IMG/VR virus record: IMGVR_UViG_3300028030_000001
Span: 19,397 to 83,396 of that record
Length of the DNA stretch: 64,000 nucleotides
Strand: one strand, 5' to 3'
DNA from: a virus
Positions 1 through 61,486 of this stretch are shown here, piece after piece. Position 1 is the first letter of the stretch, and each line of letters begins with the position of its first letter. The notes beneath the pieces were generated by a model that was not told the origin of the DNA, made no database searches, and worked only from the letters and a program-made list of their open reading frames with translations. Made by a program: the position numbers and the translations under genes.

Positions 1-2
1 TG

Positions 3-461
3 AACACAAGCCCACGGTATCAATCTTCAGACTCAAGCAAAGTAGGTCCTCCGTCATTTATTGTTGAATCAGGAGGTGTATTCAAATGTTATGCGTCTTA
101 TATCTCTGACTTTAATATTGTCAATCTTGGGTCGGGAGGATCGTCTGTACTTGATATAGTTCGGTGTGATTTCTACAATAATAAAGCTGTTTATCTGAAT
201 TCGTCTAACCTTGATTTTATTCAGACTAAGTTACATTTTCCTGGCACTAACAAATCTAATATAGGCATAATTTACAGCATTAAATCATTTGAAGATATAA
301 CTGTGTTCCAGGCTACGGAATCGTTTACTGTAAGAACGAACATGACCATGAACAGGTATACAGCGTCTGATACAACTAATGACTTGGTAATACTTGACGG
401 TGTTACTGTTAATGTTATTGATTCGGATATTGACACAAGCAGTTTGAAACGTATTACATAA
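3..461 (+). CDS. 5'-truncated tail-fibre-like beta-helix protein, paralog of 461..1786
   Basis: Not in the ORF track. Frame 3 is open from base 3 to TAA at 459-461, which overlaps the next ATG. It reads ...FIVESGGVFKCYAS...DTTNDLVILDGVTVNVIDSDIDTSSLKRIT* and aligns by eye with the C-terminus of 461..1786. Confidence 0.75.
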   Translation, partial: NTSPRYQSSDSSKVGPPSFIVESGGVFKCYASYISDFNIVNLGSGGSSVLDIVRCDFYNNKAVYLNSSNLDFIQTKLHFPGTNKSNIGIIYSIKSFEDITVFQATESFTVRTNMTMNRYTASDTTNDLVILDGVTVNVIDSDIDTSSLKRIT

Positions 462-1786
462 TGGCTGATTTTAGTGATGATTATAGTATAGTAGGAGCTT
501 CGTCTGATAACTTCAACTGTGACAGTACAGGTGGTTGGGGTACTGGCGGTAATGCTACATCTCTTGCTACGAACTCGGACAGGGTTGAAGGGTCTTATTC
601 GCTGGAATTGACAGCCTCTAATTCAGGGGATTCCTACTGGTATCATGATATATCGTCAGGATATAGGTTTAAAATAACGGAAAAAGATTTACACTTTTGG
701 TTTAAATACGTTAAAGGTAAAGGGGCTAATTTTCTTGTCCAAAACAGCACAGCGGTTGTAGTTAGATTGTATTTTGGCGGTACTACTAAATACGCTGATT
801 ATAGATGTACTTCTGAAGGAGATATAGAGCTTAAATTTGGTTGGCAGCTTTTGTCTTGTTCAGGTACTAATCTACGTGGAGGTTCTGTAGGTGGAGGGCA
901 TAACGGCGGTTCAGACTACGATTTAGACATATATCGTATAGAACTACATTTGAATTTTGCAAACAAAAACGACACGCCTCTTGCTATGGATTGCTGGTTT
1001 GTAGGAACCAAAATTGTAGTAACTAACGGAACAACATCTTCACCTTGTACGCCTGAAGATATTGTTTCGTATTCTGACACAGATAGATCAGCTTTTCCTT
1101 TAGGGCTTGCTAAACTTAACGGCAAACTTTTCGATCTTAAATCAGGTCTTGATATAGGCAACGGTTCTGACGGGGCAGGAAATGAGGGAGTGTTCAAGAT
1201 TACGTCAAGTTTCTTTCTTCTTAACCAGTTAAGTGAAGAGGTAAAGCACCATATAACGGTTAAAAATTATAGCCAGTTTCAGAGTGGTGAGATTGAAACT
1301 GGATCAGACGATAGTTATTACGTGCGAGGGTGTAAGATTGTTTTACCGGCTTCAAGATACTCGGATTTTGTTGTCCAGAACGGTGGAACTTGTAAACTGT
1401 ACGCTACCAAACTTTACAGATTCAGAAATATTTATTTAGGTGCTTTATCTGATACAGGTTCTACGTGTGAAATACATTCAGTAGATTTTGATTCAAATGA
1501 ATGTGTGTATTTTAGGGCTAACACACTTAATATGTCTGATGTACATATTCACGACAATCCTGCCAATATCGTAAATAATGCCTGTACATTTTCAGTGACT
1601 CCTGACAGCGTATCTACTGTAAAAATTTACAGGTGTCCGCACGGAGCATATTTTGATGCTAATGTGTCTGTATCAGACTTAACTATAACCGACACTACTA
1701 ATTATGATATAGGTATAAAAGATACATATACTGTACACATATTGAATAGTGTTTTCAATGCTAATAAACTTTTGAGGTTTACCTAA
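461..1786 (+). CDS. Tail-fibre/receptor-binding-like protein (N-terminal carbohydrate-binding-like domain, C-terminal beta-helix-like region)
   Basis: 441 aa, rich in G/S/T/N and beta-forming residues. N-terminal NCDSTGGW...VEGSYSL motif. Lies among tail genes. Confidence 0.55.
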   Translation: MADFSDDYSIVGASSDNFNCDSTGGWGTGGNATSLATNSDRVEGSYSLELTASNSGDSYWYHDISSGYRFKITEKDLHFWFKYVKGKGANFLVQNSTAVVVRLYFGGTTKYADYRCTSEGDIELKFGWQLLSCSGTNLRGGSVGGGHNGGSDYDLDIYRIELHLNFANKNDTPLAMDCWFVGTKIVVTNGTTSSPCTPEDIVSYSDTDRSAFPLGLAKLNGKLFDLKSGLDIGNGSDGAGNEGVFKITSSFFLLNQLSEEVKHHITVKNYSQFQSGEIETGSDDSYYVRGCKIVLPASRYSDFVVQNGGTCKLYATKLYRFRNIYLGALSDTGSTCEIHSVDFDSNECVYFRANTLNMSDVHIHDNPANIVNNACTFSVTPDSVSTVKIYRCPHGAYFDANVSVSDLTITDTTNYDIGIKDTYTVHILNSVFNANKLLRFT

Positions 1787-2622
1787 TGAATATAAAAGAT
1801 GTTACTTATGTAGGCTACAAGTCTATGGCTATATTGTGGGGTATCAGCAGTAATTACTGGGATATAGTTAAGGTATTCCGCAAACAAGCTGAGAGTAAAC
1901 AGTCTGAATATGCTCCTGGGTCTACCGAAAATGTGCGGTGGGAAAAGATAAAAGATAGGTGGAATGATTTAGCTGTTCGTATTTCGTGGGAAATGAAATA
2001 CTTAAACGGAAGTTATGGCGGTTACGGTCTTGGTGTGGAAAAGATGCTTTCACAACTATGGTCATATTTAGGCTATGACCACAAAGACTTACCAGCGTTT
2101 AGTTCATACAAACATTTGCCATTGTTGTTGCCTACAACTTTTAAAGTTGAGCCTCCCAATAATATAAGTAGTATAGAGCAACAACCTATTAGCAAAGAAG
2201 ATACTGAGTTAAGATCGCCAATACGCAACGAAAAAGAGTTTCAAGATCGGTATATCACACTGTTTAATGGTACAGTGTTTCGTATTTATACTAGTATTGG
2301 TCTTGGTATGTGGCTTAATAGTGTACTTGATAGAGACTCAGCAGATGACTATGCGTTAGATTTGTGGGACATAGTATTAGAAGGTTCCAGAAATTTTATG
2401 TATTATAGTAGGTCTTGTTTGTCAGAATCGGAAGCTAGTAATGTACAGTATTTTGACGGTAAACAAACAGATACGCAAGAAAAAATGAGAATAAGAGCTA
2501 AATACATAAGAAAACACGAAAATACTTTAACTGTCAATGGTGGAGTATACGCAATCAATAAAAGCAATATACCTGAACAATACATAAACAGTGTAAATAC
2601 TTTAGACGATTTAAATGATTAA
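1786..2622 (+). CDS. Hypothetical protein, translationally coupled to both neighbours
   Basis: 278 aa ORF overlapping both flanking genes. No motif recognised. Confidence 0.6.
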   Translation: MNIKDVTYVGYKSMAILWGISSNYWDIVKVFRKQAESKQSEYAPGSTENVRWEKIKDRWNDLAVRISWEMKYLNGSYGGYGLGVEKMLSQLWSYLGYDHKDLPAFSSYKHLPLLLPTTFKVEPPNNISSIEQQPISKEDTELRSPIRNEKEFQDRYITLFNGTVFRIYTSIGLGMWLNSVLDRDSADDYALDLWDIVLEGSRNFMYYSRSCLSESEASNVQYFDGKQTDTQEKMRIRAKYIRKHENTLTVNGGVYAINKSNIPEQYINSVNTLDDLND

Positions 2623-3388
2623 AGGAAGACCTGTTTTATACACATACTATGAGCCATACATTGCTCCTGAATTTGCTTTAAGCTACATAGATGTTCTTAC
2701 AGATATTGTGGTGTCAAGTAAGGAGCAGTGTTTTTTGAAGTTTGATACTTTAGCACCTGCTGGCATAATGCTAGGTAAAGGTCAATCAATAAAGTGTCTA
2801 AACACTGAAAAAATAAGAGAAGATAAAATAAGAGTAACAAGAAGGCAAACTGGAGGTACTGCTATATGGGCTAATCCGTTTGATATAAGTTATACTATAT
2901 GTGTGCCTCAGAAATATATAGACACGAAAGACAGAAAACAAAGCGATATTTTTTTGTATTTTACTAGCATATTCGGTAAGGCCATAAACAGGTTAGGCAT
3001 AAAAGCTAATCAATCGAATTGGTCAACACACAGTGAACGTAAGTGTCAATTTTGTTTTTGCAGTTTAGATAAAGGGGAATTAACTGTAAACGGTAAAAAG
3101 TTATGTGGAGGAGCGTTTAAAGCCAACTCTCGTATATATATGCAACAAGGCTATACGCTTATTAACACTAATCAGGCTGATTTGATGAAATATTTTAACT
3201 ACACAGGTAAAGATATTGCTTGCGAAAACCTCAATAATTTACTAAAACAGTCTGTAAAAATAAAAATGTTTGTTGACTGTGTTATAGAAGAGTTCAGCAA
3301 GATTTTTGATGTAACAATTAAACACAGAACAACAGAAGAAACACACTTATCTATGCTTAATATAGATAGGTTCATTGTTCAGGTATAA
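2615..3388 (+). CDS. Lipoate-protein ligase / octanoyltransferase family protein (BPL/LplA/LipM-like)
   Basis: RRQTGGTAI (family RRxxGGxA motif), DISYTI, CFxxxxxGELTVNGKKLCGGA and MQQG. Keeps the LipM-type CF cysteine and the catalytic Lys of GKK. Confidence 0.85.
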   Translation: MIKGRPVLYTYYEPYIAPEFALSYIDVLTDIVVSSKEQCFLKFDTLAPAGIMLGKGQSIKCLNTEKIREDKIRVTRRQTGGTAIWANPFDISYTICVPQKYIDTKDRKQSDIFLYFTSIFGKAINRLGIKANQSNWSTHSERKCQFCFCSLDKGELTVNGKKLCGGAFKANSRIYMQQGYTLINTNQADLMKYFNYTGKDIACENLNNLLKQSVKIKMFVDCVIEEFSKIFDVTIKHRTTEETHLSMLNIDRFIVQV

Positions 3389-3390
3389 CG

Positions 3391-4521
3391 ATGTCGAGCA
3401 TACTTAACAGACGATGGACATGGAAGGTTAACGTACAGAGTGGCGGTAGTGGTGTAAGTAGTGCCAAGGTTGCTCTGTGGGATGCTGACTCGTCATTTTC
3501 CTCAAGCCTTACAAATTCTTCTGGCGATATAGCTGACCAATCCATTTACGAAGCTATATACACAATAACAGATACAAGCACTATAGCTGAGACACTAAAG
3601 ACTCCACATACTGTAGCCTGCCTTAAATACGGCCTGTCACCTGTTACGCTCTCAATCAATTTTATAGCCGCAAGAAAAGACACATTCTATATGTCTACAG
3701 ATTCGTTTATAACACAAACGGATCAGACCACGGTTGATGCCTATACCGGAATCAGTATAAGTCACAGCAACAAGACCATAACGTTATCAGAATCACATAC
3801 GATTGAGGAACTTTACGATTACTGTCAGAGCGAAGCATACAATAATCCACAGAAAGATTATCCTGACAGCATATTTAAAACAGTTGACGGTATAACATAC
3901 CAGTCCTATTACACTATAATACTAACTTCTGGCACATTTAATTGTAGCAATAAAACAATAAACTTTGTTTCTGGTGAAAAGTTAAAATGTCAAGGGGGTA
4001 TACCAGATAACATAAGTATAGTAGGCGATGTTGAGTGGGGTACATCTACATCACTAAGTAATTTCACTTTAGACGGAATATTGCAGTTTAATGATCCTGT
4101 TACATTAGATTTATACAACAGCAGCGTAGACACAGTAACAACTGAATCAGGAGAAACAGTTATTATAAATCTAAGCAAATCAACCATAAACACTAATAAC
4201 GATCCTACTAATATAACTATAAACAATTTTGTTGCTTTGGTGTTCAAAGTCACAGATATGGACGGAAATAATGTGCCAAATGCGGCTGTGTATTTGAAAG
4301 CCGATTCAGGAGGTGCTTTAGCACCTGGCACTCAAATAGTAAAAACAACTACAGACAGTAACGGGGAGCTTACTGTTAACTTTAACTACACATCTGACCA
4401 GCCAGTGATAGGCCACATAAGAAAAGCAACATCAAATCCGTATTACAAAACTTATACATTATCAGGCACAATAACCAGCAGTGGTTACAATGTTTCTGCT
4501 AAAATGGTAAAGGACGAATAA
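3391..4521 (+). CDS. Tail-associated structural protein with Ig/transthyretin-like domains
   Basis: Ser/Thr-rich. Two VxVxxxxGxxVxxAxV-type modules: WKVNVQSGGSGVSSAKVAL and FKVTDMDGNNVPNAAVYL. Confidence 0.55.
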   Translation: MSSILNRRWTWKVNVQSGGSGVSSAKVALWDADSSFSSSLTNSSGDIADQSIYEAIYTITDTSTIAETLKTPHTVACLKYGLSPVTLSINFIAARKDTFYMSTDSFITQTDQTTVDAYTGISISHSNKTITLSESHTIEELYDYCQSEAYNNPQKDYPDSIFKTVDGITYQSYYTIILTSGTFNCSNKTINFVSGEKLKCQGGIPDNISIVGDVEWGTSTSLSNFTLDGILQFNDPVTLDLYNSSVDTVTTESGETVIINLSKSTINTNNDPTNITINNFVALVFKVTDMDGNNVPNAAVYLKADSGGALAPGTQIVKTTTDSNGELTVNFNYTSDQPVIGHIRKATSNPYYKTYTLSGTITSSGYNVSAKMVKDE

Positions 4522-4718
4522 TGGACGATATTTCTAAGAAGAATTTTGTTACTATAGATGCTTGGCTCAAAAGAAACAACACCAGTATAAGCGAAGTATT
4601 AAGTAGATTAACAAAACTAGAAATTAAAGTGGCAGAACTTGAAACCGCTAATGCACAGTACAGAGAGCAAATAGCTATACTTAACGGGAGACTGTTTGGT
4701 GGAGGCCCTACAACATAA
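4521..4718 (+). CDS. Small coiled-coil protein
   Basis: 65 aa with heptad pattern; TAATG overlaps on both sides. Confidence 0.6.
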   Translation: MDDISKKNFVTIDAWLKRNNTSISEVLSRLTKLEIKVAELETANAQYREQIAILNGRLFGGGPTT

Positions 4719-5860
4719 TGGCTATAACAGTAGAACCTGGCACATATATAATTCATGTACCTAAAGATGATCTTACCTTGGTTCAATCTGATCCTACAGA
4801 AATACGTGAGATGGACCTTAACTGGTTCAGAATGCAGTTGCGTGATTGGGAAGATAGTGAGGCAGGTATAGTTGAACCTGTTACGCATAATCACAATACT
4901 GAAGTTGTGTTAGGTGGTATAACCTATGCTAGAGTTATCGAAATATTGCCTCCGTACACTATAACATTCGAAGACGGCCAATATGCGGTTAATCTGGTAG
5001 GGGCAAATAGCAATGTCGGAGACAGAGTAAATGTTAATCAAGTTTCAATTCGTTCCAGTAATTCGGCAGGGCTGATTTTTAGTGATCTGTTAGAGTACGC
5101 TTCCTTTAATGGTTATGTAACTTACGATGAAGTTAATGGTGTTTCTGGTACTTTGATGCCTACAGGTACAGAAAAACAACCTGTAAATAATATGAGAGAT
5201 GCCAAACTAATAGCAGAATATAGGGGTTTGTTTAAAGGCTATATAAAAGGTGGTGGGATTACACTTGACGGTACAGAAGATGTAGCATCATTTGAATTTA
5301 TTGGTGAAGGCGGAGACAGGACAATAATTACTGTGCTACCAGAAGCTAACGTATCTAATTGTGTGTTTAGAAAAGCTTTCGTTACAGGTACTTTGGATGG
5401 AAAATCAAAGCTTGTTCAGTGTGCAATAGGCGATCTTTCTTATATTAACGGATATGTGTACGAGTGTTTCTTGGTAGGAGGCACTATTTCGTTAGGTGGT
5501 AATAGGGCTGCGGCGTTTCTTAACTGTTGGTCTGATAACTCTATGCCGGGAACACCTGTTATAGACTTAGGCGGGTCTGGACAGCCTTTGTCTATGCAAA
5601 ATTTTGTAGGGGAAATAACTCTTACTAACAAAACAGGCCCCGATTATGTCATGATAACATTAAGTGAAGGTTGTGTGTACGTTGATACAGCTACAATGAC
5701 TAATGGTACGCTTGTTGTGGCCGGTACAGGTCGTGTTATAGACATAGTAACAGGCAAAGATTTAGTTTCTGGTATGTATGGTAATATGGAAGTACAGAAT
5801 CACGTAATATCCCTATCAAATATAGCTGGTAGGGTGTGGTCACAAAACGAGGCCCCGTAA
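4718..5860 (+). CDS. Virion structural / tail-associated protein
   Basis: 380 aa. N-terminal EDGQYAVNLVGANSN...NQVSIRSSNSAGL region resembles other phage tail-region proteins I recall. Beta-rich C-terminus. Confidence 0.5.
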   Translation: MAITVEPGTYIIHVPKDDLTLVQSDPTEIREMDLNWFRMQLRDWEDSEAGIVEPVTHNHNTEVVLGGITYARVIEILPPYTITFEDGQYAVNLVGANSNVGDRVNVNQVSIRSSNSAGLIFSDLLEYASFNGYVTYDEVNGVSGTLMPTGTEKQPVNNMRDAKLIAEYRGLFKGYIKGGGITLDGTEDVASFEFIGEGGDRTIITVLPEANVSNCVFRKAFVTGTLDGKSKLVQCAIGDLSYINGYVYECFLVGGTISLGGNRAAAFLNCWSDNSMPGTPVIDLGGSGQPLSMQNFVGEITLTNKTGPDYVMITLSEGCVYVDTATMTNGTLVVAGTGRVIDIVTGKDLVSGMYGNMEVQNHVISLSNIAGRVWSQNEAP

Positions 5861-6132
5861 TGGCTACAGCTTGGGAAATATTAACGTCCAAATCTTCGGC
5901 TCCTTCTGGGAGCACAGCTTGGGAACATCTCAACAGTATAACAGGTTCTGGGGGAGTTTTTATTTTGGCTGACGGTATTGATTTGCTACTAAATAACGAT
6001 GTTTCAGTAGTGGATGTGTCTAATGAAGAAAAGTTGTCTGTTATACTGTCAGATAGCGATATTACAGTAACTGAAGATAACAGCAGAATAAGCATTAACA
6101 AAGACTATGTTGTTGATATTGTTAAGGGGTAA
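5860..6132 (+). CDS. Hypothetical tail-region protein
   Basis: Likely start is the ATG at 5860 (MATAWE...), overlapping the upstream stop. Internal TAWE repeat. Confidence 0.55.
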   Translation: MATAWEILTSKSSAPSGSTAWEHLNSITGSGGVFILADGIDLLLNNDVSVVDVSNEEKLSVILSDSDITVTEDNSRISINKDYVVDIVKG

Positions 6133-6135
6133 TTT

Positions 6136-6492
6136 ATGGCAGCAGCAGCTTCTTTAACTATAGAATACATGCGTGGGGATAGTTACCCCAAATATTTCAC
6201 AGTTATAGACACTGACACTAAAGAGCCTGTTCCTTTAGATGGATATACTGTGGTTATGACTGTTGACGAAAATCCTGAACCTAAAGACTCGTCTAGTATG
6301 GTTTTTCAGATTGATGGCGTTGTTGTTCCTGACGAAGTTGGTAAATTCTATATACACCCTACAGAAAGCAACAACAATATAGCACCAAACACTTACTATT
6401 TCGATTTTCAAATAATAAATAGTTCTTTAGGTATAAAAAGGACTATAGCTAAAGGTAAGTACAAAATTTATCAGGACATAAATAAGACTTAA
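6136..6492 (+). CDS. BppU-like baseplate / Ig-fold protein
   Basis: RGDS...F.V.D....PV.L.GY...G.F...PT...YYFDFQI pattern. Confidence 0.55.
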   Translation: MAAAASLTIEYMRGDSYPKYFTVIDTDTKEPVPLDGYTVVMTVDENPEPKDSSSMVFQIDGVVVPDEVGKFYIHPTESNNNIAPNTYYFDFQIINSSLGIKRTIAKGKYKIYQDINKT

Positions 6493-6496
6493 TGGT

Positions 6497-6826
6497 GTGG
6501 ATATATTATTTGACAATAGTTTGTGGGTTTCTATGATTGAACCTGTTACTATTTGCTCTGCTCTGTCCATAGTAGCTAGTTTAGGCGATAGAAAAGGTTT
6601 AAAGAATAATATGGTGTGGTTTCTTCTATCAAACACCGTTTCCAGTGTTTGTATGGGTGTTTCTATACATATTATTGCGTATAGGTTTGATACTACACTA
6701 TTTAATGAGTATGAGTACGTTATGCTGATTGTGGCTGGTTTAGGCGGCGAACCGTTGCTTAGAAATATACAGAGTTTTCTTAGAAATATTAATGTTGTTG
6801 ATTTATTGAGGTGGTTACGGAAATGA
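6497..6826 (+). CDS. Small multi-pass membrane protein (holin-like)
   Basis: About three hydrophobic segments, AGLGG motif, basic C-terminus (LRWLRK). Confidence 0.5.
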   Translation: MDILFDNSLWVSMIEPVTICSALSIVASLGDRKGLKNNMVWFLLSNTVSSVCMGVSIHIIAYRFDTTLFNEYEYVMLIVAGLGGEPLLRNIQSFLRNINVVDLLRWLRK

Positions 6827-13013: not shown

Positions 13014-14356
13014 AAACAGTTCTCCTTTATGTATTCCAATGTATCTGTTTCTCCGTCTTTATCGAATCTGATTTCAACCAGTCTAGGAAGAAATAGCGAG
13101 TACACGCCGTCTCGTGAGTCTGAATCAATAACGGATTCGTACCGAACCGTGGCAAGTTTCCCGATACAATCAGAATCAATACTTTCTCTGTCTCTGTCCG
13201 TAAGCCCTGAACTTACCTGTACCTTAACCTTACCATCATCCGATTCGAGTATAAGACTGCCTACACAATGTTCGTACTTAGTGCCCTGTTTCCCTGGCAG
13301 AATCTGTTTTATTCTGAGTTCACAATCGGATTCGTTTTTGATTTTGATCTGGTCTTTTGACGTGCCATCTTTCCAGATTCCGTACTTGTTCTTTACTACA
13401 CAACCTTCCTCACCAGATAATCTCATAGCCCTATAATGGTGAGCTATATCTTCATTAGACCTTACAATGTGTGTTATTATAGCCTCGAACACATCTACCC
13501 GTCTGTGTGTTTCAGCTATTTCACGGCATTTTTCGTACCTGTCCATGTACGGGGTAGTGCTCATACCTCTAACAAATACCTCGTATGTAACACAGTCCCA
13601 TATACTGTAACATACACTATTAAGTTCTTCTTTAGTGGCCGTGTCTTTAATACATTTGTTGATTATGCCGTTACCTTTCTTACGAGGTAGGACAAATCCG
13701 TTTTCGTCTCTTACAAGAAGCTCCCCCATAAGTACATATCGTGTATTGTACAAGCCAAGAGCTTTAGCTTGTATCATCATGGTATCATACAAAAGTACAC
13801 CAGGCTCAGACAACGCTACAATATCTGATCCGTTTCTGGTCATGAAACCTACATCTTTTGCGTTAAAGTAAGCGTAAGCGAATACGCCATCAGCCTTTGG
13901 CTGTAACATGGCCGGGAACGTAATATTGCCTATTTTGGCTTGGGAAGAACAGCGCATATAAGGAATAATCGTAATAAGGCCAGGCTCGACTTTATTCACG
14001 GTCTTGGCCGCAATTCCGCTTCCTAACCGTTTCGTTACTATCCGGCGCACAACTTCCCATGTTTCCTTGTCAGGAATCATTGAAAACAGTTCATCCTTTT
14101 CTTCTTTCTTGATTCCTCTTTGTATCGACAACTCAATAAGTTTGTTTAGAATGTCATTACCTGGTGTCTGTACACCCGTATTTTTGAACTTGGGTAGTTT
14201 GTTGATATGGAAAGTGTATCCTGGGTCAAGCGACAGCATAGCAGTTGTCCTGAACAGTGGATCAGTCAGGAAATCTTTAAGAAGCTGTTTTTTGGTTTGT
14301 GCTGAATTTGCTTCAGACAAGAGTTGAAGCTTGTCATAAACTGGTTTCAGGCTCAT
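13010..14356 (-). CDS. ATP-dependent DNA ligase
   Basis: KADG motif I, GEL, EEGCVVK, KIK and SLFLPR in the OB-fold. Confidence 0.93.
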   Translation of the reverse strand: MSLKPVYDKLQLLSEANSAQTKKQLLKDFLTDPLFRTTAMLSLDPGYTFHINKLPKFKNTGVQTPGNDILNKLIELSIQRGIKKEEKDELFSMIPDKETWEVVRRIVTKRLGSGIAAKTVNKVEPGLITIIPYMRCSSQAKIGNITFPAMLQPKADGVFAYAYFNAKDVGFMTRNGSDIVALSEPGVLLYDTMMIQAKALGLYNTRYVLMGELLVRDENGFVLPRKKGNGIINKCIKDTATKEELNSVCYSIWDCVTYEVFVRGMSTTPYMDRYEKCREIAETHRRVDVFEAIITHIVRSNEDIAHHYRAMRLSGEEGCVVKNKYGIWKDGTSKDQIKIKNESDCELRIKQILPGKQGTKYEHCVGSLILESDDGKVKVQVSSGLTDRDRESIDSDCIGKLATVRYESVIDSDSRDGVYSLFLPRLVEIRFDKDGETDTLEYIKENCL

Positions 14357-14517
14357 TTACATTCTCCTACCTTTGAGTTTCTGGTATTCGTTGCGTTTAT
14401 CGTCAGCTACAATACACACCCTAGCACCTTTATCGAGTTTCCACACATAGCTCCTATGTCTTGGAGAATACTCTGTGCCATACACTGTCTTACGAATCTT
14501 TTTTGCTTTCTTGTTTC

Positions 14518-15138
14518 TCATTTAACACCTCTTAACCTGTATTTTTCTATCTTATCACACACCAAAAATTCTTTACTATGTGTAGACAGAATCAGTTGTA
14601 ACCCCAATTCAGAACATAACCTGCTCAGAACTTTAGCAGCTAATGCCTGATTATCCTCACTCAAATGTTTTAATGGTTCATCAGCTATAATTACCGGAGC
14701 GGATTCTGTCAGGACTACATAAGCCATTCTGAGTACGGTCGAGGCTATATCAGCGTAACCGAACCCACAAGACCTCAATGGGTCGTATTGATTACCGTCC
14801 CGCTCATAGGCAAATTCGCATTTAAGCTTACTCCGGTAAAAACTGAAAACGGATTTGAAAGCATAAACATTGTCTGATTCAGAACTGAACACGGCTTTGA
14901 ACGCTTCAGTTACTACATCATCGAAATAACTGGAAGCTGTAGATTGTACGATATAAAGAGCGTCATACAAGACCTCAAGTGCTTGTTTATTGGTTTGTAG
15001 CTTGTTCTGTAACTGCTCTGAGTTGTGTTCAAGCTCTGATTTTAAAGTAGTCAGGTACTCAAACCTTTTAGTGGCCTTGTCTAGTCTATTCTTCAGTTTC
15101 GAGTTCAAGGAAGTCTCCGTACTCTGATATAAACTCAT
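14518..15138 (-). CDS. SbcC/Rad50 C-terminal half (ABC signature plus Walker B)
   Basis: Coiled coil followed by SCGFG signature-like motif, IIADEP Walker B and STH H-loop. No Walker A. Confidence 0.8.
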   Translation of the reverse strand: MSLYQSTETSLNSKLKNRLDKATKRFEYLTTLKSELEHNSEQLQNKLQTNKQALEVLYDALYIVQSTASSYFDDVVTEAFKAVFSSESDNVYAFKSVFSFYRSKLKCEFAYERDGNQYDPLRSCGFGYADIASTVLRMAYVVLTESAPVIIADEPLKHLSEDNQALAAKVLSRLCSELGLQLILSTHSKEFLVCDKIEKYRLRGVK

Positions 15139-15340
15139 CCCATAACTGATTAGCCTTCTCTATAGCTTCATTCACTTCTTTCTTTTGTTTTTCCAGGTAA
15201 GCTTCGGCTTCCTCTATAGTATCGAAACCTAACCTGTCCATGAGTGCTTCATATTTTCCTTCGAGCTTGTCTCGTTCTTTTTTCTTGGCCTCTATCTGTT
15301 CCTCAATGATTTTCAGATCATCTTCTGTAAATTTAAGCAT
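15086..15340 (-). CDS. Small coiled-coil protein
   Basis: Charged heptad repeats. Likely start MLKFTEDD at 15340. Confidence 0.65.
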   Translation of the reverse strand: MLKFTEDDLKIIEEQIEAKKKERDKLEGKYEALMDRLGFDTIEEAEAYLEKQKKEVNEAIEKANQLWDEFISEYGDFLELETEE

Positions 15341-16097
15341 CAGAAAACCTCTCCAACAACTCATCACGTAACGGTTTTATAAGTGCCTGCATTTGTGGGT
15401 CAGCAGCAGAAGAACAACGCAATTCAAATATTGTTTTCCATTGAGACAGTCTTGTAGTCATAACAATGACTGTAGATAATGCTTGTGGAAGTATGTTTCT
15501 GGCCTGTTGTGCAGGCAAACCACGATTGAGCATTTTCAGATATGTAAGCTCAATATTGTGCAGTTCCATAGTAAACTCGTCTTGGATACTGTGATGCCAT
15601 TCCTCAAACTTGACAGGCTTTATGAAAACAAGTCCTTCACTTTCACGGCAATACCTGGTAGATTTTATAGAAAACCCGCAGAACAATCTGTGTCTTGTAA
15701 GTTCCGCCATCATTGCTCTGTTCGTAAAGAACTCTACCGTAATCATAGGATTACTTATATTCTGCTTGTTTCCGTCAAAGAAAGGCTCAAGATCGTCCAC
15801 AGATTCGATTCCATACCGCTCTATGAATACTCTGAGATTGTTTGCGTACCGACCATCACCTGCATAAGCTTCCCATCGAGAATTAATTGCGTTATCTGTT
15901 ATCACATCAACATGCTCAAATACAGACAAATGACCTCTTCTCAAGAGGTGGTTAAGCATCGGTTTCCACGAATCTTCCGTTATCTTGTCTCTTGAATCGT
16001 AACAAGTCCTGCCTGCTTTTTCTATCCACTTCATAGCAGGCACGAATTCTGTAGGTGGCACACCCCAAATGCTATGATATTGTTCTTTGATTTGCAT
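15333..16097 (-). CDS. thyX: FAD-dependent thymidylate synthase
   Basis: AGRTCY, GHxSVFEH, ELTRHR...SxxSTRY and ARxILP motifs. Confidence 0.92.
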   Translation of the reverse strand: MQIKEQYHSIWGVPPTEFVPAMKWIEKAGRTCYDSRDKITEDSWKPMLNHLLRRGHLSVFEHVDVITDNAINSRWEAYAGDGRYANNLRVFIERYGIESVDDLEPFFDGNKQNISNPMITVEFFTNRAMMAELTRHRLFCGFSIKSTRYCRESEGLVFIKPVKFEEWHHSIQDEFTMELHNIELTYLKMLNRGLPAQQARNILPQALSTVIVMTTRLSQWKTIFELRCSSAADPQMQALIKPLRDELLERFSDA

Positions 16098-17040
16098 TGA
16101 TCCACTCCTCTATTTTGTTTCGTACTGCATCTGCTACTTTACGGTCGTTTAACAGGTGCTTGATTACTTCTATTGGGTCAGGTGTTACCTCTTTGTTGCC
16201 AAATGCCTGCAACAGTTTCTGTACATCAACAGATACTGTTTTCTTTTCTTTTTTCTCTACTTCATCAGGTGTTACTTTGTAGTATTGTTCGGCAGGTAAC
16301 AAGGACTGAAGCACAATACGCCTCCATTCAAGCGTTTCGCTGTTGATAAGCCATACACAAGGTTCATGGTCATACTGGTTTATTGCAGACCTTGCGATAG
16401 AACCGCAGTTGATCAAAAGTTGATCATTTGTCTGAGTAACGAAAGATTGATGATTGTCTCCGCACAAGAACAGTTTTATATGTGGATTAGTCTGCATCAA
16501 ATCTTCAGACAGGAGGTATTTTGATTCGTCTATGGGTAAGGTTGTGTTCGATACAAGAGCGTGAACGAGAGCTTTATTTTTGTGTGTACTTATTATGTCA
16601 GACTCTGTATCGAGTTTGATAACGTAAGAAGAATCAATGGCTAACTTGACAACACCAGCAGCTATAAGCGTACCAAATTGGCTGTCTTTCACGCCTTCCA
16701 TTGTGTAGTTGTAATTCTTTACGTCATGATTGCCCGGTATAGCTTTTATTGGTACGCTCCAATGCCTGAGTTCTGTGATAAGGTCGAACATCTGAGATTC
16801 TGTTATGTTTCCTGTAGGTGCATCAAACCAGTCACCTACAAACACAACCTCTCTTACTTTATGATACTTTGCTATACCTCGTATTTCTTCAAGTGACAGC
16901 ATTGACTGTTCAAACATACTGACCTCGTTCCTGACATACTTAGGAACTCGATTAGTCATATGTAAGTCAGCAAATGCCAGTATATCAAACTCTCCAGTGG
17001 ATTCTGTAGGCTCCACACTTGGGGCAGGTTTCAAGACCAC
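16072..17040 (-). CDS. SbcD/Mre11-like metallophosphoesterase nuclease
   Basis: DLH, GDWFD, GNHD, GDNH and NCGS motifs. Confidence 0.88.
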   Translation of the reverse strand: MVLKPAPSVEPTESTGEFDILAFADLHMTNRVPKYVRNEVSMFEQSMLSLEEIRGIAKYHKVREVVFVGDWFDAPTGNITESQMFDLITELRHWSVPIKAIPGNHDVKNYNYTMEGVKDSQFGTLIAAGVVKLAIDSSYVIKLDTESDIISTHKNKALVHALVSNTTLPIDESKYLLSEDLMQTNPHIKLFLCGDNHQSFVTQTNDQLLINCGSIARSAINQYDHEPCVWLINSETLEWRRIVLQSLLPAEQYYKVTPDEVEKKEKKTVSVDVQKLLQAFGNKEVTPDPIEVIKHLLNDRKVADAVRNKIEEWINANQRTIS

Positions 17041-18343
17041 TCTCTATCTCCTTTCTTTTCCGTTCCAGTTCATGAATGGAGTCTGAAACTGATTGAATTT
17101 CTGACTCACTCTGTAACAGTTTCCTGATATTGTTCGTGAGTTCTTCTATTGTTCCACGTGAAACATAAACTGATTTTGTCAGTGTGCTTAACCTGTCTAT
17201 GTTTGTAACACATTGGTTAAGTTGCTCAAACTGTCGTAACTTCCTGTGATAAAGTTTGGTATCTTCTGCTCTGTTTATTATTTCTGTTATATTACTGATT
17301 ACAGCTATACGGCCTTTAAGCTCTCCAAGTGTGTTAAACGATTGAGCTAACGCACTGTCCATAGAATCTAGCACTGTACCGATACGATCCAGAGACTTGA
17401 GCATTGACACAAGTGTATCATATTTTGAAACTTTGTCAACAACTTTTCTAAGTTCTTGAGGTGTTTCAGACGCTAACAAACTTTCAGGCAGGTCTGTTTC
17501 AAGTCTGTTTCTTGTGTGTTTTGCTTCTTGTACACCATATTCAGTTTCGTTTATCTCTCTGGCAAGTTTAGCCGATGCTACAAGAGCTTTTTTGAGCTTT
17601 TCTATGTTTATACTCGAAACAGTAGCCAGTCTGTGTGCATTGTCTCGTAATGTCCTGGCGTCTGTTATGCTTGACTGTAATTGTTCCGCTCTGTCTTTCT
17701 TACTCTCATACTCCTTAACCATCTCTTCCCAGGTACGATACATATTGTTGGCCGGTTCAACCCAAGAAAGTGATTTAAGTTCTTTACTACGTTTAGACAG
17801 ATTTTTGTCTGTTATTTTTGACTCTTGTTCTATAGCTTTGGTTTCTTTCTCTGCCAGTTCCAGTAGCTCTACCAATTCAGAAAAGTCAAACACATCATTT
17901 AACTTTTCCATTAGTTCAGAAGGCTTGTCATCAAGCATAAAGAACTGGTCTTTTTGTATCTTGATGTTCAGGTCAGTAATATCAAGCAGAGCCTTAACAG
18001 CTTCAGGTACTTTGCCGATACCTACTGCCTTGAGTATTTGTGGTTCGTATTTGTCTTTAGTTATCCTGTACTCATTTAACCTGTTCTTCTGCCATATTCT
18101 GTGTATCCTGCTCCCATCACCAAGCTCTACAATAACTTCCATAACATCTTTAGGATGTTTGTTGTTTATAAGCTTTGCAGGTGTGCCTACGTTTCTAAGA
18201 CACCACAATAAAGCTCGTATGATACTTGACTTACCTACGTCTGATGGGCCTTGCAAAACAGTAAGTACACTATTGAAATCTATAATAAGACGTTCATGTT
18301 TTTCAAAATTTTTGAGCGTGAGTTTTTTAATGACCAGTTTCAT
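16985..18343 (-). CDS. SbcC/Rad50 N-terminal half (Walker A, coiled coil, ends at the zinc hook)
   Basis: LKNF..H, GPSDVGKSS Walker A, Q-loop region, long coiled coil and terminal CPKCG. Confidence 0.85.
   Translation of the reverse strand: MKLVIKKLTLKNFEKHERLIIDFNSVLTVLQGPSDVGKSSIIRALLWCLRNVGTPAKLINNKHPKDVMEVIVELGDGSRIHRIWQKNRLNEYRITKDKYEPQILKAVGIGKVPEAVKALLDITDLNIKIQKDQFFMLDDKPSELMEKLNDVFDFSELVELLELAEKETKAIEQESKITDKNLSKRSKELKSLSWVEPANNMYRTWEEMVKEYESKKDRAEQLQSSITDARTLRDNAHRLATVSSINIEKLKKALVASAKLAREINETEYGVQEAKHTRNRLETDLPESLLASETPQELRKVVDKVSKYDTLVSMLKSLDRIGTVLDSMDSALAQSFNTLGELKGRIAVISNITEIINRAEDTKLYHRKLRQFEQLNQCVTNIDRLSTLTKSVYVSRGTIEELTNNIRKLLQSESEIQSVSDSIHELERKRKEIESGLETCPKCGAYRIHWRV
17150..17165. 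promoter_or_regulatory. parS site (TGTTCCACGTGAAACA) inside the SbcC N-half gene
   Basis: Exact match to the bacterial parS consensus TGTTNCACGTGAAACA. Encodes the YVSRGT segment of the protein. Confidence 0.7.
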
Positions 18344-49885: not shown

Positions 49886-51559
49886 ATGACAGAAAACACT
49901 TCACCCAACACACCCTCCAACACACCCTCCAACACTCCCGCTTTCAAATTCGATTTCTCTTCACTTCCGTTCGAGGACAGACAAGCGATCATAGACGAAT
50001 TCGCACCAGAAATAATTGATCAGTTGGCCTTGACCAACAGACCCTGGACAACTCAACCAACAAACACACTCTATGACGAAGATGGGTTCCCTATAAACCC
50101 TAACAAGCACAAAGAAACACAATCATTACAACAGTTACAGGCAAGTTGCTGGGAAAAGGTACAGAACTCTCCACACTTGTCAGGGTACGTGAACGATACA
50201 GCAGGTAAAATCTGTGGTAACGGCTTTTCCATTGACGCATTCGACCAACGAATACAAACGGTAGTGGATGAGATTCTGACCGACCCAAGGAACGACTTCA
50301 TTCTGAATACGCCTATGTACATATCAAGGCATCTCATTGAAGGTGAGTTGTTTCTACCAATGACCATACATCCTGACGCATTCTGTGAGATAGACTTTAT
50401 TGACCCTGCCTACATCAAGGGCGGATCAGAAGATAACACAGGTATAATCTCGCATCCGACAAAACCACAAGTAAGACTGGCCTACATCATAGAAAGACCC
50501 GATAAGAAACCGATCACGATTCCGTCCACGTACCTGTTACACTACCCAAATGCTATCAAACTCATTCCGAAACAGTACAGAGACAGAATACCGACCACTA
50601 CAAATAGAAAATACAAAAAAATCAACAACATAGCCAACTACATGATCGAGTGGAAACGTGGTTATGTTACGAAACGGAATCTGTCTCAGATCAAATCAAC
50701 TCTTGAATGGTTGAATTATTATGAGTTGATGAAGAAGATTGAGGTGGATTACAAGCGGTCTGCTACCAGTTACTTATGGGTAGTGAAGTTTGAGGATAAG
50801 GCGGCTTTTCGTTTGTGGATGAGTATGACGGAAGAGGAGCAGAGGCGGACAGGTTTGATGGCTCAGAAAAGTCCTGGCGGCCAGTTGATTCTGCCTCCTG
50901 GCATGACCATATCATGTGAGGCTCCGAGATTGTCAACGATTACTGACGAGGACAGGGATTTGCTTCATTTTGTGACGGCTGGGCTTGGAGTAGATGCGTC
51001 TACGTTGACAGGGGATTATAACGCTAACACTTATGCGTCTGCAAAGATGGCTAGAACACCTTTATCAGACAGAATAAGTGCATATGCAACATATTTTGAA
51101 CGATTTATCAAGTATGAACTGTTCAGGTCTGTATTTATCGCGAAGAACATTATTAACGGAACAAAAATTGATTATAAAGTAAAACAGGTAGTAAAGTTTC
51201 TTGATAAGGAGCCGAGGTCTAGGAACGTAATAAAGAAAGCATGGGAACTTATTGATGTTTCGTTTCCATTGGATGACGTGGCCGATTTGGAAGCGAAAGC
51301 TAAAGCATTTCTTGGTTCGAAACATGGCTCGCTTCCTGACACATTGGGGATTAGTAAGGAAACTATCGCTAAACGGTTAGGGTTCGGGGCATACGCAAAA
51401 GAAGTTTACAAATATTGGTCTGAGAAAGAGTATATGCCTGATTTGCCTGTGGATGAGTTTCGGGAAAATTTGGTGAACAGTGACGAATCGGCTCAGACAT
51501 CGGTTACTGAATCAAACGATTCTGGTGTGGAAGATGCTGAGGTTCCTGGTGGGGAATAG
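49886..51559 (+). CDS. Portal protein
   Basis: 557 aa. IEGELF, PGGQLILPPGM and LTGDYNANTYASA motifs typical of portals; acidic tail. Confidence 0.75.
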   Translation: MTENTSPNTPSNTPSNTPAFKFDFSSLPFEDRQAIIDEFAPEIIDQLALTNRPWTTQPTNTLYDEDGFPINPNKHKETQSLQQLQASCWEKVQNSPHLSGYVNDTAGKICGNGFSIDAFDQRIQTVVDEILTDPRNDFILNTPMYISRHLIEGELFLPMTIHPDAFCEIDFIDPAYIKGGSEDNTGIISHPTKPQVRLAYIIERPDKKPITIPSTYLLHYPNAIKLIPKQYRDRIPTTTNRKYKKINNIANYMIEWKRGYVTKRNLSQIKSTLEWLNYYELMKKIEVDYKRSATSYLWVVKFEDKAAFRLWMSMTEEEQRRTGLMAQKSPGGQLILPPGMTISCEAPRLSTITDEDRDLLHFVTAGLGVDASTLTGDYNANTYASAKMARTPLSDRISAYATYFERFIKYELFRSVFIAKNIINGTKIDYKVKQVVKFLDKEPRSRNVIKKAWELIDVSFPLDDVADLEAKAKAFLGSKHGSLPDTLGISKETIAKRLGFGAYAKEVYKYWSEKEYMPDLPVDEFRENLVNSDESAQTSVTESNDSGVEDAEVPGGE

Positions 51560-51638
51560 GTAAAAATAAGAAAACTTAATGGTTTCAGTTAGTTGGTTTA
51601 GTTTTTTGGTCGTTTTAATATTAAAAATTGATTAAATT

Positions 51639-53510
51639 ATGGCTTATAATTCGGAACAGTCCTGGCTTAATGAGAAGCTTGAATTTTGGAAATGGGGGAA
51701 TGGAGAGGCAGTTGCAGATTGGGCTGAACATCATGTAAAAGTCAAGGTATTGAATTTTGATACGGGCGGGTTTGAGTTTGTGTATCTGAAAGATATGCCT
51801 ACTCAGAAACATCCCGAAACAGGCCGGTCTTACAGGGATTTGTGGGAGTGGCAGAAGGAGTCGTATCTGTATCCTGCTTTGGAGAGGCATACGAACGGGA
51901 AGTTTCGGTACGATACGCTTGTGAATTGTACTCCTCGTGGGGAGGGGAAAACTGCGGTGAATGTGATTATTATGCTTCACCGCTTTTTCTGTTTTGTGGA
52001 GCAGAAGATTATTTGCGGAGCGAATTCTAAACAGCAGTCGGTGTTTAGTGTGAAAACGATTGCTGAAGATATTATATTGAATTCTGACCCGTTACTGTCT
52101 TTGGTTCCGAGGGACGACATAAAGGACAAGGAGATAAGGCTGAGGGATTCGAGAGGGGAAGTAAGGAATACAATTATTGCTATTTCTGCAAAGCACGGTG
52201 TGTATTCCAATATTACTCTGGCGATATTTTCTGAAATATTTCAGATGGCTCCACCGTTTGAGATGTATTACCAGTTGGATTCGTCCAGACGAAATATTCC
52301 ACATTCATTAGTTCTTGTAGATTCAACTGTATCGGACAAACATCATGTACTTTACCATCTTTACGACATTTCTAAAAAACCTGATTCGAGTGTGTTTTTT
52401 AACTATACTTATAGTAATTCTGGGGATTATCGAGACTATTATCATCCTCTCCAGACTCAGCAACAGCTTGATTCGTTTAGGGAAAAGTTTACTGATTCGG
52501 AGTTCAAGATGTTTTTCCTCAACAAGTGGTCGGGGAAATCTACAGAATTCTTCCCGGAAAAAGCTGTAGAAGCCTTGAATATAATCGGAATCGACTCACA
52601 AGTACCTGCCAATCCTAGAGAGATTATTACTCTGTGCCAGCAAAAAATTGAAGCCGAAACAAATGACGATTCAAACACATATGAACAACTGAAACATCGC
52701 CTGGTTCCGCTTCCGTACAAACTCGAAGCATACGGACATCCTGATTTTATTTCTGGTGAAGCCTTACTTGAACTTCGGGATATGTATGATACCGATTTTG
52801 CTCTTGGTATCGGTATTGATATGGCCGATGCTCTTAAGGATGATTTGACCAAGGGTGCGAGGACTATCGCAGCCTTTATGTTGAAAGGGCTTCCTGGCTC
52901 GCTTCATAATCCAAGTCTTACTTCTGGTTATGACCCTGACGATCCTGAAGATTTGTCTAAACTGGACAGACTTAATTTCGTGTATTTTTGTGCAGGATTG
53001 TTCCACGTGGAAACATCTGATGCGAATGATGTTGTTAGACTGATTGCTCAGTGCAAGGATTCGTTTGCGTTTCCGTTCAATGTACTGGTCGAAAGATGGG
53101 GAAGTTCTGAAATTGTCTCTTATTGTGAGTCTGAGATGATTCCTGTTGAGGTTGTGCATCCGAGTTATGGGTTCCAGCGGGAAGTGTTTAATAGGGTGTA
53201 TCGTCAGGTTATTGCGGGAAAGACAAAGGTTCCTGAGCTTCCGGTTCAGGGAAGAGACGAATCCGTAGATATACTGAGAGAAGAGTTGAGGAATTTTATT
53301 TATGATTCGTCAAAGAAATTCTATGGTTCCCCTACAAAATCGAATCCGAGGGGAATTCAGGATGACTCCGTGTATGCGTGGGCTTATTCACACCACAGCT
53401 TGAGGAAGGCTATTGTTCAGGACTTTGATGTTTGTGCTCAGTACGGAAAAGATGCGTCTATTCCTATGTTTGGGCTTATGATTAAACCTCAAAATGTGGC
53501 AGGTTATTGA
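51639..53510 (+). CDS. terL: Terminase large subunit
   Basis: LWEWQ, PRGEGKT Walker A, ANSKQQS, AIFSE Walker-B-like, DST, and nuclease GIDMAD and QDDSVYA. Confidence 0.88.
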   Translation: MAYNSEQSWLNEKLEFWKWGNGEAVADWAEHHVKVKVLNFDTGGFEFVYLKDMPTQKHPETGRSYRDLWEWQKESYLYPALERHTNGKFRYDTLVNCTPRGEGKTAVNVIIMLHRFFCFVEQKIICGANSKQQSVFSVKTIAEDIILNSDPLLSLVPRDDIKDKEIRLRDSRGEVRNTIIAISAKHGVYSNITLAIFSEIFQMAPPFEMYYQLDSSRRNIPHSLVLVDSTVSDKHHVLYHLYDISKKPDSSVFFNYTYSNSGDYRDYYHPLQTQQQLDSFREKFTDSEFKMFFLNKWSGKSTEFFPEKAVEALNIIGIDSQVPANPREIITLCQQKIEAETNDDSNTYEQLKHRLVPLPYKLEAYGHPDFISGEALLELRDMYDTDFALGIGIDMADALKDDLTKGARTIAAFMLKGLPGSLHNPSLTSGYDPDDPEDLSKLDRLNFVYFCAGLFHVETSDANDVVRLIAQCKDSFAFPFNVLVERWGSSEIVSYCESEMIPVEVVHPSYGFQREVFNRVYRQVIAGKTKVPELPVQGRDESVDILREELRNFIYDSSKKFYGSPTKSNPRGIQDDSVYAWAYSHHSLRKAIVQDFDVCAQYGKDASIPMFGLMIKPQNVAGY

Positions 53511-60604: not shown

Positions 60605-61486
60605 ATGGCACGTACAGGTCCTATAACAAAAGATACTTCTACACTGGCTCTTGGGTTAGCCCAGGTTCGTGTGGGTGAATACAGTTCAACTCTCAACATA
60701 ACTACTCCGGTACTTACTGAGGCAGACTCACTCGGCGCATTAGCTGATACAAAGCTTACTGGCAGTGTTGAGTATTGGAGTCATAGTTCAGGTTTTCCCG
60801 CTCTTGAGGATTTTGTTATTCCTCTTAACGAGTCTCAAGCTATGGAAATGGCCTTTGAAGAGGTTACGCCGTTTAACTTAGCTTTGGCTCGTGGTATAAG
60901 TCCGTTTGCTGATGTTGATGCGGATGTTTTGGTAATAGGCTCTACTACAAGTTCAGGCACAACATCTGGGAATATTACACCGGATAATGCAGGGTCAGTA
61001 AACGATGAGTGGACAGTAGTTTTTACAAGTGCCACTACTTACGATGTTTACGGCAAAACTACGGGTTTTGTAGGGTCGGCTACAGACTTGACTTCCGCAT
61101 TCAGCCCGCTTAATGGAAGTGATCCTTATTTTACAATACCGGCCAACTATTTTACGGGTACATGGGCAGAGAACGACACACACGTATTTAGCACTACGGC
61201 TTTTGTGTCTGGCACAAATGCTTACTCTGATCCGCATACTGGTGAGATACCCTTCGGTACAGTAAAGGCTCCTGACTACATAAGGATGGAAGCAGTGTAC
61301 ACATTCCCCAACGGTGTCAATACGCTTACCATTATCTACCCGTATGCTCAGGTAACATCGAGTGTGGAACTTGGTTTCACTAACGATGACAATGCGAAAA
61401 TCTCTATCACTATCAGCTCCAAATCAGTGCCAGCTAGTGCTACGAATTGGGCTAACGCTCCGCAGGGTAAGATGATTTTTGCGTAA
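60605..61486 (+). CDS. Major tail tube protein
   Basis: LGxAQVxVG...SLGAL...EEVTPFNLALA; followed by a hairpin and the chaperone genes. Confidence 0.75.
   Translation: MARTGPITKDTSTLALGLAQVRVGEYSSTLNITTPVLTEADSLGALADTKLTGSVEYWSHSSGFPALEDFVIPLNESQAMEMAFEEVTPFNLALARGISPFADVDADVLVIGSTTSSGTTSGNITPDNAGSVNDEWTVVFTSATTYDVYGKTTGFVGSATDLTSAFSPLNGSDPYFTIPANYFTGTWAENDTHVFSTTAFVSGTNAYSDPHTGEIPFGTVKAPDYIRMEAVYTFPNGVNTLTIIYPYAQVTSSVELGFTNDDNAKISITISSKSVPASATNWANAPQGKMIFA

Follow-up and report, generated by a model that had tools for sequence, protein, structure and literature searches.

A LipM-type enzyme gene and an orphan companion gene in a candidate receptor-binding cassette of a tailed phage

What does an enzyme of the lipoate ligase family do among the receptor-binding genes of a phage? 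To our knowledge, this family is known only from the attachment of cofactors to a handful of metabolic proteins. The question is raised by the genes at positions 3 to 4521 of a 64,000-nucleotide (nt) stretch of DNA, hereafter called the window, which consists of bases 19397 to 83396 of the 83,396-bp IMG/VR virus record IMGVR_UViG_3300028030_000001. This record has direct terminal repeats and an estimated completeness of 100%, and an exact terminal repeat of 127 bp was found at the genome ends. Because a portal, large terminase, head protease, major head protein, and family-A DNA polymerase are all recognizable, the genome belongs to a tailed phage. Among public sequencing runs, one DNA run contains the stretch, which is a hydrothermal vent metagenome and probably the source sample, and no RNA runs containing it are listed.

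We favor a reading wherein this locus is a five-gene accessory receptor-binding cassette that carries, between its fiber genes, a two-gene unit composed of a LipM-type acyltransferase and an orphan protein. The probability of this reading is, in our estimate, roughly 0.45. An earlier inspection of the sequence (the original prediction) had instead described a tail-fiber gene split around the enzyme, which might join the separated parts or acylate virion proteins.

The identity of the enzyme is supported by sequence profiles and by a predicted structure. Its gene (positions 2615 to 3388, plus strand) encodes a single-domain LplA-fold protein of 257 amino acids (aa) that matches the Pfam families PF21948 (E value 1.9e-21, 77.4 bits versus a cut-off of 27, profile positions 2 to 199 of 200) and PF03099 (28.5 bits versus 21). 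An RRQTGG sequence (residues 76 to 81), a Cys147-Phe148 pair, and a Gly-Lys-Lys sequence (160 to 162) are present. The original assignment to the BPL/LplA family by an RRxxGG motif, a CF cysteine, and a GKK lysine is confirmed by these matches, and the LipM-type nature of the cysteine is supported in that these are aligned, conserved residues. In LipM itself, the catalytic residues are C150 and K165. An AlphaFold model of the enzyme, built from a 77-sequence alignment, reached a predicted local distance difference test score (pLDDT) of 92.0 and a predicted template modeling score of 0.90. Its best structural match, determined with VIA, is the Thermoplasma acidophilum LplA structure 2art (Z 26.2, root mean square deviation 2.4, 233 of 247 residues), followed by other lipoate ligases (Z 22-25), LipB (Z 21.6 for 2qhs, and 19.2), the single-domain Bacillus/Streptococcus proteins 2p0l and 2p5i (Z 20.9 and 20.6), and biotin ligases (Z about 14). 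The whole 257 aa form one catalytic domain (model residues 6 to 257 align to 2art), without a C-terminal accessory domain.

The residues expected at the active site are maintained in distant relatives. When 1.84 billion representative sequences were searched exhaustively with phmmer, 694 proteins reached an E value of 1e-3 or lower, with 21 at 1e-10 or lower, and the best 150 of these 694 are 136 to 294 aa long, mostly 230 to 290 aa, as is typical of single-domain forms. Across 77 relatives, Lys162 is conserved in all 77, Cys147 in 76, and Phe148 in 72. The phage enzyme and its five nearest relatives (P0001-P0006) form one branch in a quick IQ-TREE analysis (SH-aLRT 91), in which P0002 to P0006 share 24 to 30% identity with the phage enzyme. 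Within this branch, Cys147, Phe148, and Lys162 are invariant, and G54, Q57, R77, T79, G81, Q177, and G179 are kept as well, a residue pattern that, over so divergent a branch, fits purifying selection on a putative active site. The six members also share a loss, in that a His at position 86, kept in 68 of the 77 relatives, is absent from all of them, which suggests that substrate handling may be altered.

The protein does not fall into any of the named subfamilies for which profiles are available. No branch member reaches any NCBIfam cut-off, and the phage enzyme scores below the LplA thresholds, with 51.7 bits versus 280 for TIGR00545 and 30.7 bits versus 480 for the large-subunit profile NF053750. 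The LipL profiles NF047857 and NF053589 give no match to the phage protein at an E value of 0.1 or lower, and two relatives (P0006 and P0007) score 21 to 30 bits against them, where the cut-offs are 400 to 450. PHROGs holds no family for the enzyme or seven of its relatives at meaningful E values. The neighboring genes match no Pfam family that would reveal an LplB-like accessory subunit; such a subunit could hide in the adjacent 278-aa protein beyond recognition. Within its known family the enzyme is divergent; its residue pattern comes nearest to LipM, and its profile and fold to the archaeal LplA large subunit. We consider it probable, judging from these conserved residues, that it is a LipM-type acyltransferase active in acyl transfer. 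In this context, PMC7253636 states the LipM cysteine thioester in general terms and cautions that function in the LplA family is not safely readable from sequence, and PMC6067878 indicates that single-domain family members can be true ligases.

No convincing phage-borne relative of this enzyme was found in a collection of 50,697 phage records. When these records were searched by tblastn, the enzyme matched two Staphylococcus "phage" entries at 21% identity that are not truly phage, and its closest homolog, P0002, matched nothing. The relative P0007 matched 23 records of the collection, many of which are unannotated multi-contig "phage" entries, and both of the two that we inspected are bacterial chromosome fragments. 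The first (L048; GenBank MT835915.1, "UNVERIFIED: Bacteriophage sp.", 15.5 kb) looks like such a fragment by its content, which includes a dihydrolipoyl dehydrogenase-like gene, a single-domain LplA-like gene (PF21948, 168 bits), an E2 gene with a lipoyl domain, an E1 gene, a TonB-dependent receptor, and a U32 peptidase, and it shows the usual cellular setting of the LplA enzyme family. The second (L049; GenBank OR844995.1, "Staphylococcus phage SA 1306 Kay", a 137.6-kb node) contains gcvPB (792.9 bits) with a LipM-type gene next after it, and is therefore host chromosomal DNA under a phage name. In both of these cellular neighborhoods, the LplA-family gene adjoins genes for lipoyl-dependent enzymes, namely an E3/E2/E1 operon (L048) and gcvPB (L049). 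IMG/VR scans with the enzyme, P0002, P0003, and the alignments A3 and A5 gave no relatives, a word-index search with the enzyme returned only itself among 157 candidates, and nothing was found by a metagenome scan with P0002 or a genome-contig scan with alignment A5. A metagenome scan with alignment A3 yielded a single distant locus (L046). A Foldseek search of BFVD, a library of viral structures, gave only four matches at an E value of 0.001 or lower, namely a ligase of a giant virus, two small proteins from siphoviruses, and an unnamed protein of 682 aa.

The gene layout places the enzyme among candidate receptor-binding genes. The five genes encode proteins of 444, 441, 278, 257, and 376 aa, all on the plus strand, and they sit at the far end of a long plus-strand block of tail and structural genes. 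The window opens within the 444-aa gene (genome 18523-19857), whose start lies 873 nt ahead of it; the portion present (positions 3 to 461, open at the 5' end) encodes the C-terminal 152 aa of a first paralog composed of an N-terminal part and a probable right-handed beta-helix. The second paralog (441 aa, positions 461 to 1786), the 278-aa orphan protein (1786 to 2622), the enzyme, and the stand-alone 376-aa fiber module protein (3391 to 4521) follow. The earlier observation that these open reading frames (ORFs) overlap or lie 2 nt apart was verified at each junction: there are 1-nt TAATG overlaps at 461, 1786, 4521, and 4718, an 8-nt overlap between the 278-aa gene and the enzyme gene at 2615-2622, and a 2-nt gap at 3389-3390. 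These overlaps and the layout of the cassette likewise uphold the view that the enzyme gene is embedded among, and tightly packed with, receptor-binding genes. The G+C content at third codon positions is even over the block (0.275-0.326), and neither promoter-like sites (30 versus 35.0 +/- 6.0 in shuffled sequences) nor terminator-like sites (3 versus 4.5 +/- 2.6) exceed the shuffles, which is consistent with long residence and co-transcription of the block.

Evidence that the five genes form a unit comes from comparison with related phages. The major head protein has 28 IMG/VR relatives at about 50 to 56% identity, and the five longest of the corresponding records (28.6-91.8 kb, completeness 34-100%) were taken for comparison; none of the five contains a PF21948 match or a 441-like gene. 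All 114 ORFs of the genome were then compared by local BLAST with three of these five records. In one of them, G003 (91.8 kb, 100% complete), a 657-aa homolog of the 556-aa gene that lies upstream of the cassette (E value 3.5e-12) is followed by a 63-aa ORF and then by a 401-aa homolog of the 380-aa protein encoded downstream of the cassette. In the window, these downstream flanks are a 65-aa small protein, encoded by the first gene past the cassette (positions 4521 to 4718, plus strand), and the 380-aa fiber- or spike-like protein (4718 to 5860, plus strand). The 380-aa protein, which also gives a weak Pectate_lyase_5 match (E value 0.003), shares 26.6% identity with its G003 counterpart over 399 residues (E value 5e-23), and the small proteins in equivalent places are weakly similar (E value 0.015, one against one). 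Between the G003 flanks, there are none of the five cassette genes, and in the present phage there are exactly these five, then the 65-aa ORF. Because the flanks adjoin without them in G003, the five genes appear to behave as one insertable block, gained or lost as a unit.

Other features of these genomes also differ in arrangement. The trio composed of the 556-aa gene (genome 16846-18516), the ORF of about 65 aa, and the 380-aa gene (window 4521-5860) may itself be a movable fiber unit. The portal gene precedes the large terminase gene at window positions 49886-53510; in G003 the terminase comes first, with four other ORFs before the portal, and the head module is thus rearranged among phages whose major head proteins are about 52% identical.

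The companion of the enzyme is an orphan. The 278-aa protein has no family in Pfam, PHROGs, NCBIfam, or PADLOC, the last of which holds no family for any of the five cassette proteins, and tblastn of the 278-aa protein against the phage records gave nothing. A word-index search yielded a sole homolog, P0162 (281 aa), with 44% identity at 97% coverage, recorded on a single 45,801-bp contig from JGI. The closest homolog of the enzyme, P0002 (35% identity), is likewise recorded on a single JGI contig, also 45,801 bp long. Because both contigs measure the same, we infer that P0162 and P0002 share one contig, and that the pair of enzyme and partner occurs together twice. The idea that the 278-aa gene travels with the enzyme is supported by the equal contig sizes. 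Of the two proteins, the partner is the better conserved (44% versus 35%). Structure prediction adds little here: the ESM Atlas model of the 278-aa protein is unusable (pLDDT 0.38), and a predicted complex of the two proteins scored 0.00 with an uncertain partner fold, which speaks neither for nor against binding. The protein is a candidate partner, acceptor, or specificity factor of the enzyme.

Profile searches for GcvH, Biotin_lipoyl, PP-binding (acyl carrier protein, ACP), and LipA gave no match anywhere in the complete phage genome; the acceptor and donor profile controls matched in 11 to 14 of 14 known genomes. The original finding that the window holds no lipoyl-domain or LipA gene therefore stands and extends to the complete genome. 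Because the phage lacks donor genes, the acyl donor must come from the host. We envision a reaction in which a host donor would supply an octanoyl- or lipoyl-like acyl group to form a thioester on Cys147, after which this group would move, with the participation of Lys162, onto a lysine of an acceptor protein, at its epsilon-amino group. The acceptor would more likely be set by the phage, as the 278-aa partner or a cassette protein, than be host GcvH or E2. A phage-specified acceptor, which we propose tentatively and at somewhat less than even odds, is made somewhat likelier by the conserved orphan partner, the 8-nt overlap, the behavior of the cassette, and the residue change that sets the branch apart close to the substrate loop, although none of them demonstrates it. 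We infer catalytic competence, thioester chemistry, and acceptor identity. That the enzyme and the 278-aa protein form a dedicated unit that would acylate, with an octanoyl- or lipoyl-like group, a lysine of the partner or of a receptor-binding protein in the cassette is, taken as a whole, an unlikely proposition.

Several points weigh against the cassette reading and its extension to acylation of phage proteins. The borders of the cassette rest on the single comparator G003, with about 25% identity in the flanking genes, and the trio of 556-, 65-, and 380-aa genes lies at another genome place in G003, between the large terminase and the portal (14344-17692). The putative co-occurrence on a second contig is deduced from equal size (45,801 bp). 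The 278-aa protein, a candidate acceptor, is unlike a lipoyl domain (hhalign probability 0.1% versus an E2 protein). The loss of His86 could equally mean lower activity. The Staphylococcus aureus ORF that serves as our LipM reference was identified by elimination, in that it has a single domain, adjoins gcvPB, and falls far below the LipL and LplA cut-offs, and from the gene list given in PMC5049849, which names four family members (LipM, LipL, LplA1, and LplA2), and not from an annotated record. Finally, as PMC7253636 and PMC6067878 describe, all characterized family members serve lipoate metabolism, which makes host lipoylation the default expectation, and a position in a structural operon is compatible with an auxiliary metabolic gene.

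The most probable alternative is that the enzyme is an auxiliary metabolic gene product that octanoylates or lipoylates host GcvH or E2 during infection and so sustains 2-oxoacid dehydrogenases and glycine cleavage, its location among fiber genes being incidental, as for a moron. In its favor, the enzyme retains the catalytic Cys and Lys of its cellular relatives, its fold cannot be told apart from those of lipoate ligases and transferases, and host components would be needed because the phage genome encodes neither acceptor nor donor. Against this, the enzyme gene forms a pair, and overlaps, with that of an orphan protein whose conservation exceeds its own, both lie within a receptor-binding block that appears to be gained or lost as a unit, and the enzyme belongs to the branch lacking the otherwise common His. 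Full-text searches of the literature likewise gave no publication that treats lipoate ligases of phages as metabolic genes, although such an absence is weak evidence. We judge a metabolic role to be somewhat unlikely.

A noncatalytic role is improbable. Here, the LplA-fold and 278-aa proteins would serve as chaperones or structural adaptors for the neighboring fibers, in the manner of tail-fiber assembly proteins, with the active site kept by descent only. Both genes do lie between fiber genes, the usual place of assembly factors, the branch has lost His86, and small LplA-fold proteins (187 and 229 aa) exist in uncultured siphoviruses. The invariance of Cys147, Phe148, and Lys162 and the retention of seven further residues described above argue against it, as this pattern fits purifying selection.

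The remaining question is whether any fiber gene at this locus is split, as the original prediction held. The 444-aa and 441-aa proteins align from residues 12 and 19 through to their final residues (26% identity, E value 2e-26). The common end point that had been noted for them is real, but its interpretation as a break point fails, because the two are complete, full-length paralogs. Each gene has its own start and its own N-terminal region of about 185 residues. For the 441-aa protein, this region has no assigned fold and is followed by a probable tailspike-like beta-helix. The AlphaFold model on which the latter statement rests was built from a two-sequence alignment and is poor (mean pLDDT 42.6; below 50 for residues 1 to 228; 60 to 73 in C-terminal blocks). 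Residues of about 190 to 441 of this low-confidence model match right-handed beta-helices by VIA-align (50 entries, Z 14.5-11.3), for which the repeats inflate Z, and the best match is ORF18 of Geobacillus virus E2 (Z 14.5, root mean square deviation 3.9, 224 residues aligned). The CBA120 tailspike TSP2 (Z 14.3) and pectate-lyase-fold proteins are matched too. A beta-helix that spans residues of about 190 to 441, apparently reaching the last residue without a C-terminal domain, is likely but not secure. Searches of Pfam, PHROGs, and NCBIfam assigned the 441-aa protein to no family, its low-confidence model gave no Foldseek match in BFVD at an E value of 0.001 or lower, tblastn found no match to it in the phage collection, and no 441-like gene occurs in the five related records, so that the 441/444 pair has no sequence relatives in either set.

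The 376-aa protein was the presumed continuation of the split fiber. Its residues 13 to 277 correspond to residues 350 to 610 of the 695-aa "structural protein" STIP28_57 (gp57) of the Synechococcus T7-like virus S-TIP28 (27% identity, E value 5e-19), and its residues 79 to 203 to residues 853 to 978 of the 1081-aa metagenomic protein P0159 (38% identity, E value 9e-20). The search for its homologs was limited to longer proteins in the word index, where two were found (P0159 and the 1751-aa P0160), and to the phage collection, where tblastn matched three records. An IMG/VR scan with the 376-aa protein gave no relatives, and none of gp57, P0159, and the 376-aa protein matched a PDB sequence. 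The front parts of gp57 and P0159 resemble neither the 441-aa nor the 444-aa protein (BLASTP E values 0.18, 0.28, and 1.1; hhalign probabilities 0.2% and 1.4%). Thus, the fused homologs that the original prediction called for exist in part only: the 376-aa module does recur toward the rear of longer proteins, but these have unrelated N-termini, and among the proteins searched, none combines a 376-like with a 441-like part. Elsewhere, by its alignments, the module is the rear part of a longer fiber, and here the protein begins at the module border.

The sequence likeness that had suggested a continued junction also dissolves. The resemblance between the ends ...KRIT and ...LRFT and the start ...RRWT... 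of the gene at 3391 spans three residues and is not above chance, as the 114 ORFs contain 17 instances of R-x-[WYIF]-T, where 12.4 are expected from composition, and in four of these ORFs the motif falls within the initial 15 residues. An Ig-like module was said to follow this motif; the sole signal of this kind, a Big_1 match below threshold (25 bits versus a cut-off of 34.9), lies at residues 281 to 337 of the 376-aa protein, away from the N-terminus. The fiber gene is very probably not split by inserted genes. The defensible statement, as far as these alignments reach, is that ordinary shuffling of fiber modules would account for three separately encoded fiber subunits here, and enzymatic joining receives no sign from it.

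These results leave very little room for the proposal that the enzyme covalently links the 376-aa protein to the C-terminal ends of the two paralogs (444 and 441 aa) and thereby rebuilds a split fiber after translation. Two features would suit such a reaction. The 376-aa protein starts at a module border, and in S-TIP28 and P0159 this module is preceded by a long N-terminal region of the same chain; in addition, a beta-helix apparently runs to the last residue of the 441-aa protein, which has no C-terminal domain beyond it. Against the proposal, the two paralogs are complete, the searches described above gave no linking homolog, and the junction motif is no rarer than chance. We know of no LplA-family member that activates a peptide C-terminus, and of no precedent for protein-module ligation by an LplA-fold enzyme. 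Noncovalent attachment of separately encoded distal fiber subunits is common in phages, as with the T4-type gp38 adhesins and the CBA120 tailspikes. The active sites of the family bind C8 acyl chains or biotin (PMC7253636).

What is new at this locus is the context, wherein a LipM-type enzyme with an orphan partner lies in a phage receptor-binding cassette, in a genome without a lipoyl protein. The split-gene reading is corrected, and the cassette becomes an ordinary modular set of separate fiber subunits. One possibility is that phages tune host lipoylation, which would represent a new kind of auxiliary metabolic gene. The other is that phages acylate their own proteins, a new virion modification that would bear on host range and fiber assembly. 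If the latter were true, a post-translational step would build or arm the host-recognition apparatus with host acyl donors.

Elsewhere in the genome, a few features were recorded. Blastn of window positions 1 to 6500 against the phage records gave nothing, and among the nine proteins of this region, the sole PHROG match is that of a 118-aa protein (6136-6492) to phrog_1084, a family of unknown function (E value 1.2e-11). A 408-aa protein (genome 5061-6287) and a 293-aa protein (window 60605-61486) resemble each other in a C-terminal module, for which matches lie at the ends of phrog_6128 and phrog_9261, and the 408-aa protein additionally matches a head-decoration family.

Among known systems, LipM is the closest to the phage enzyme by residue pattern. 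The LipM-type S. aureus ORF, a 278-aa single-domain ORF that adjoins gcvPB on a chromosome piece filed as phage, has C151-F152 and K166 that align with C147 and K162, with the same 15-residue spacing. Both proteins are single domains of about 260 to 280 aa on an LplA scaffold with an RRxTGG loop, but they share only about 18% identity, and the phage copy lacks the His of the GGxAVxHD stretch. LipM of Bacillus subtilis and S. aureus is an octanoyl-ACP:GcvH octanoyltransferase, whereas the phage copy lies among fiber genes with an orphan partner, and not beside gcv or lipoyl-enzyme genes.

The ATP-dependent LplA of T. acidophilum (Ta0514; PDB 2art, 2ars, and 3r07) is the best PDB profile match of the phage enzyme (E value 9e-30), but it has a gap at the position of the Cys-Phe pair. 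This LplA, the large subunit of a two-part ligase, is a single catalytic domain, and its partner LplB is encoded by a neighboring gene. The phage enzyme likewise has a neighbor, the 278-aa protein, which belongs to no detectable family and is roughly three times as large as LplB. A phage-encoded LplA fold is also found in Siphoviridae sp. ctVCm11 (187 aa, Foldseek E value 1e-7) and ctg6c78 (229 aa, 2.3e-11). These proteins are shortened and share 12 to 14% identity with the phage enzyme, which is of full size and has the LipM-type Cys. The cassette as a whole, with its two tandem, probably beta-helical paralogs and a separately encoded distal module, resembles the branched or multi-tailspike sets and separate distal adhesins of other phages, such as TSP1-4 of CBA120 and the T4-type gp38. 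It differs from them in having no recognizable N-terminal anchor domains and in carrying a putative acyltransferase pair inside the set.

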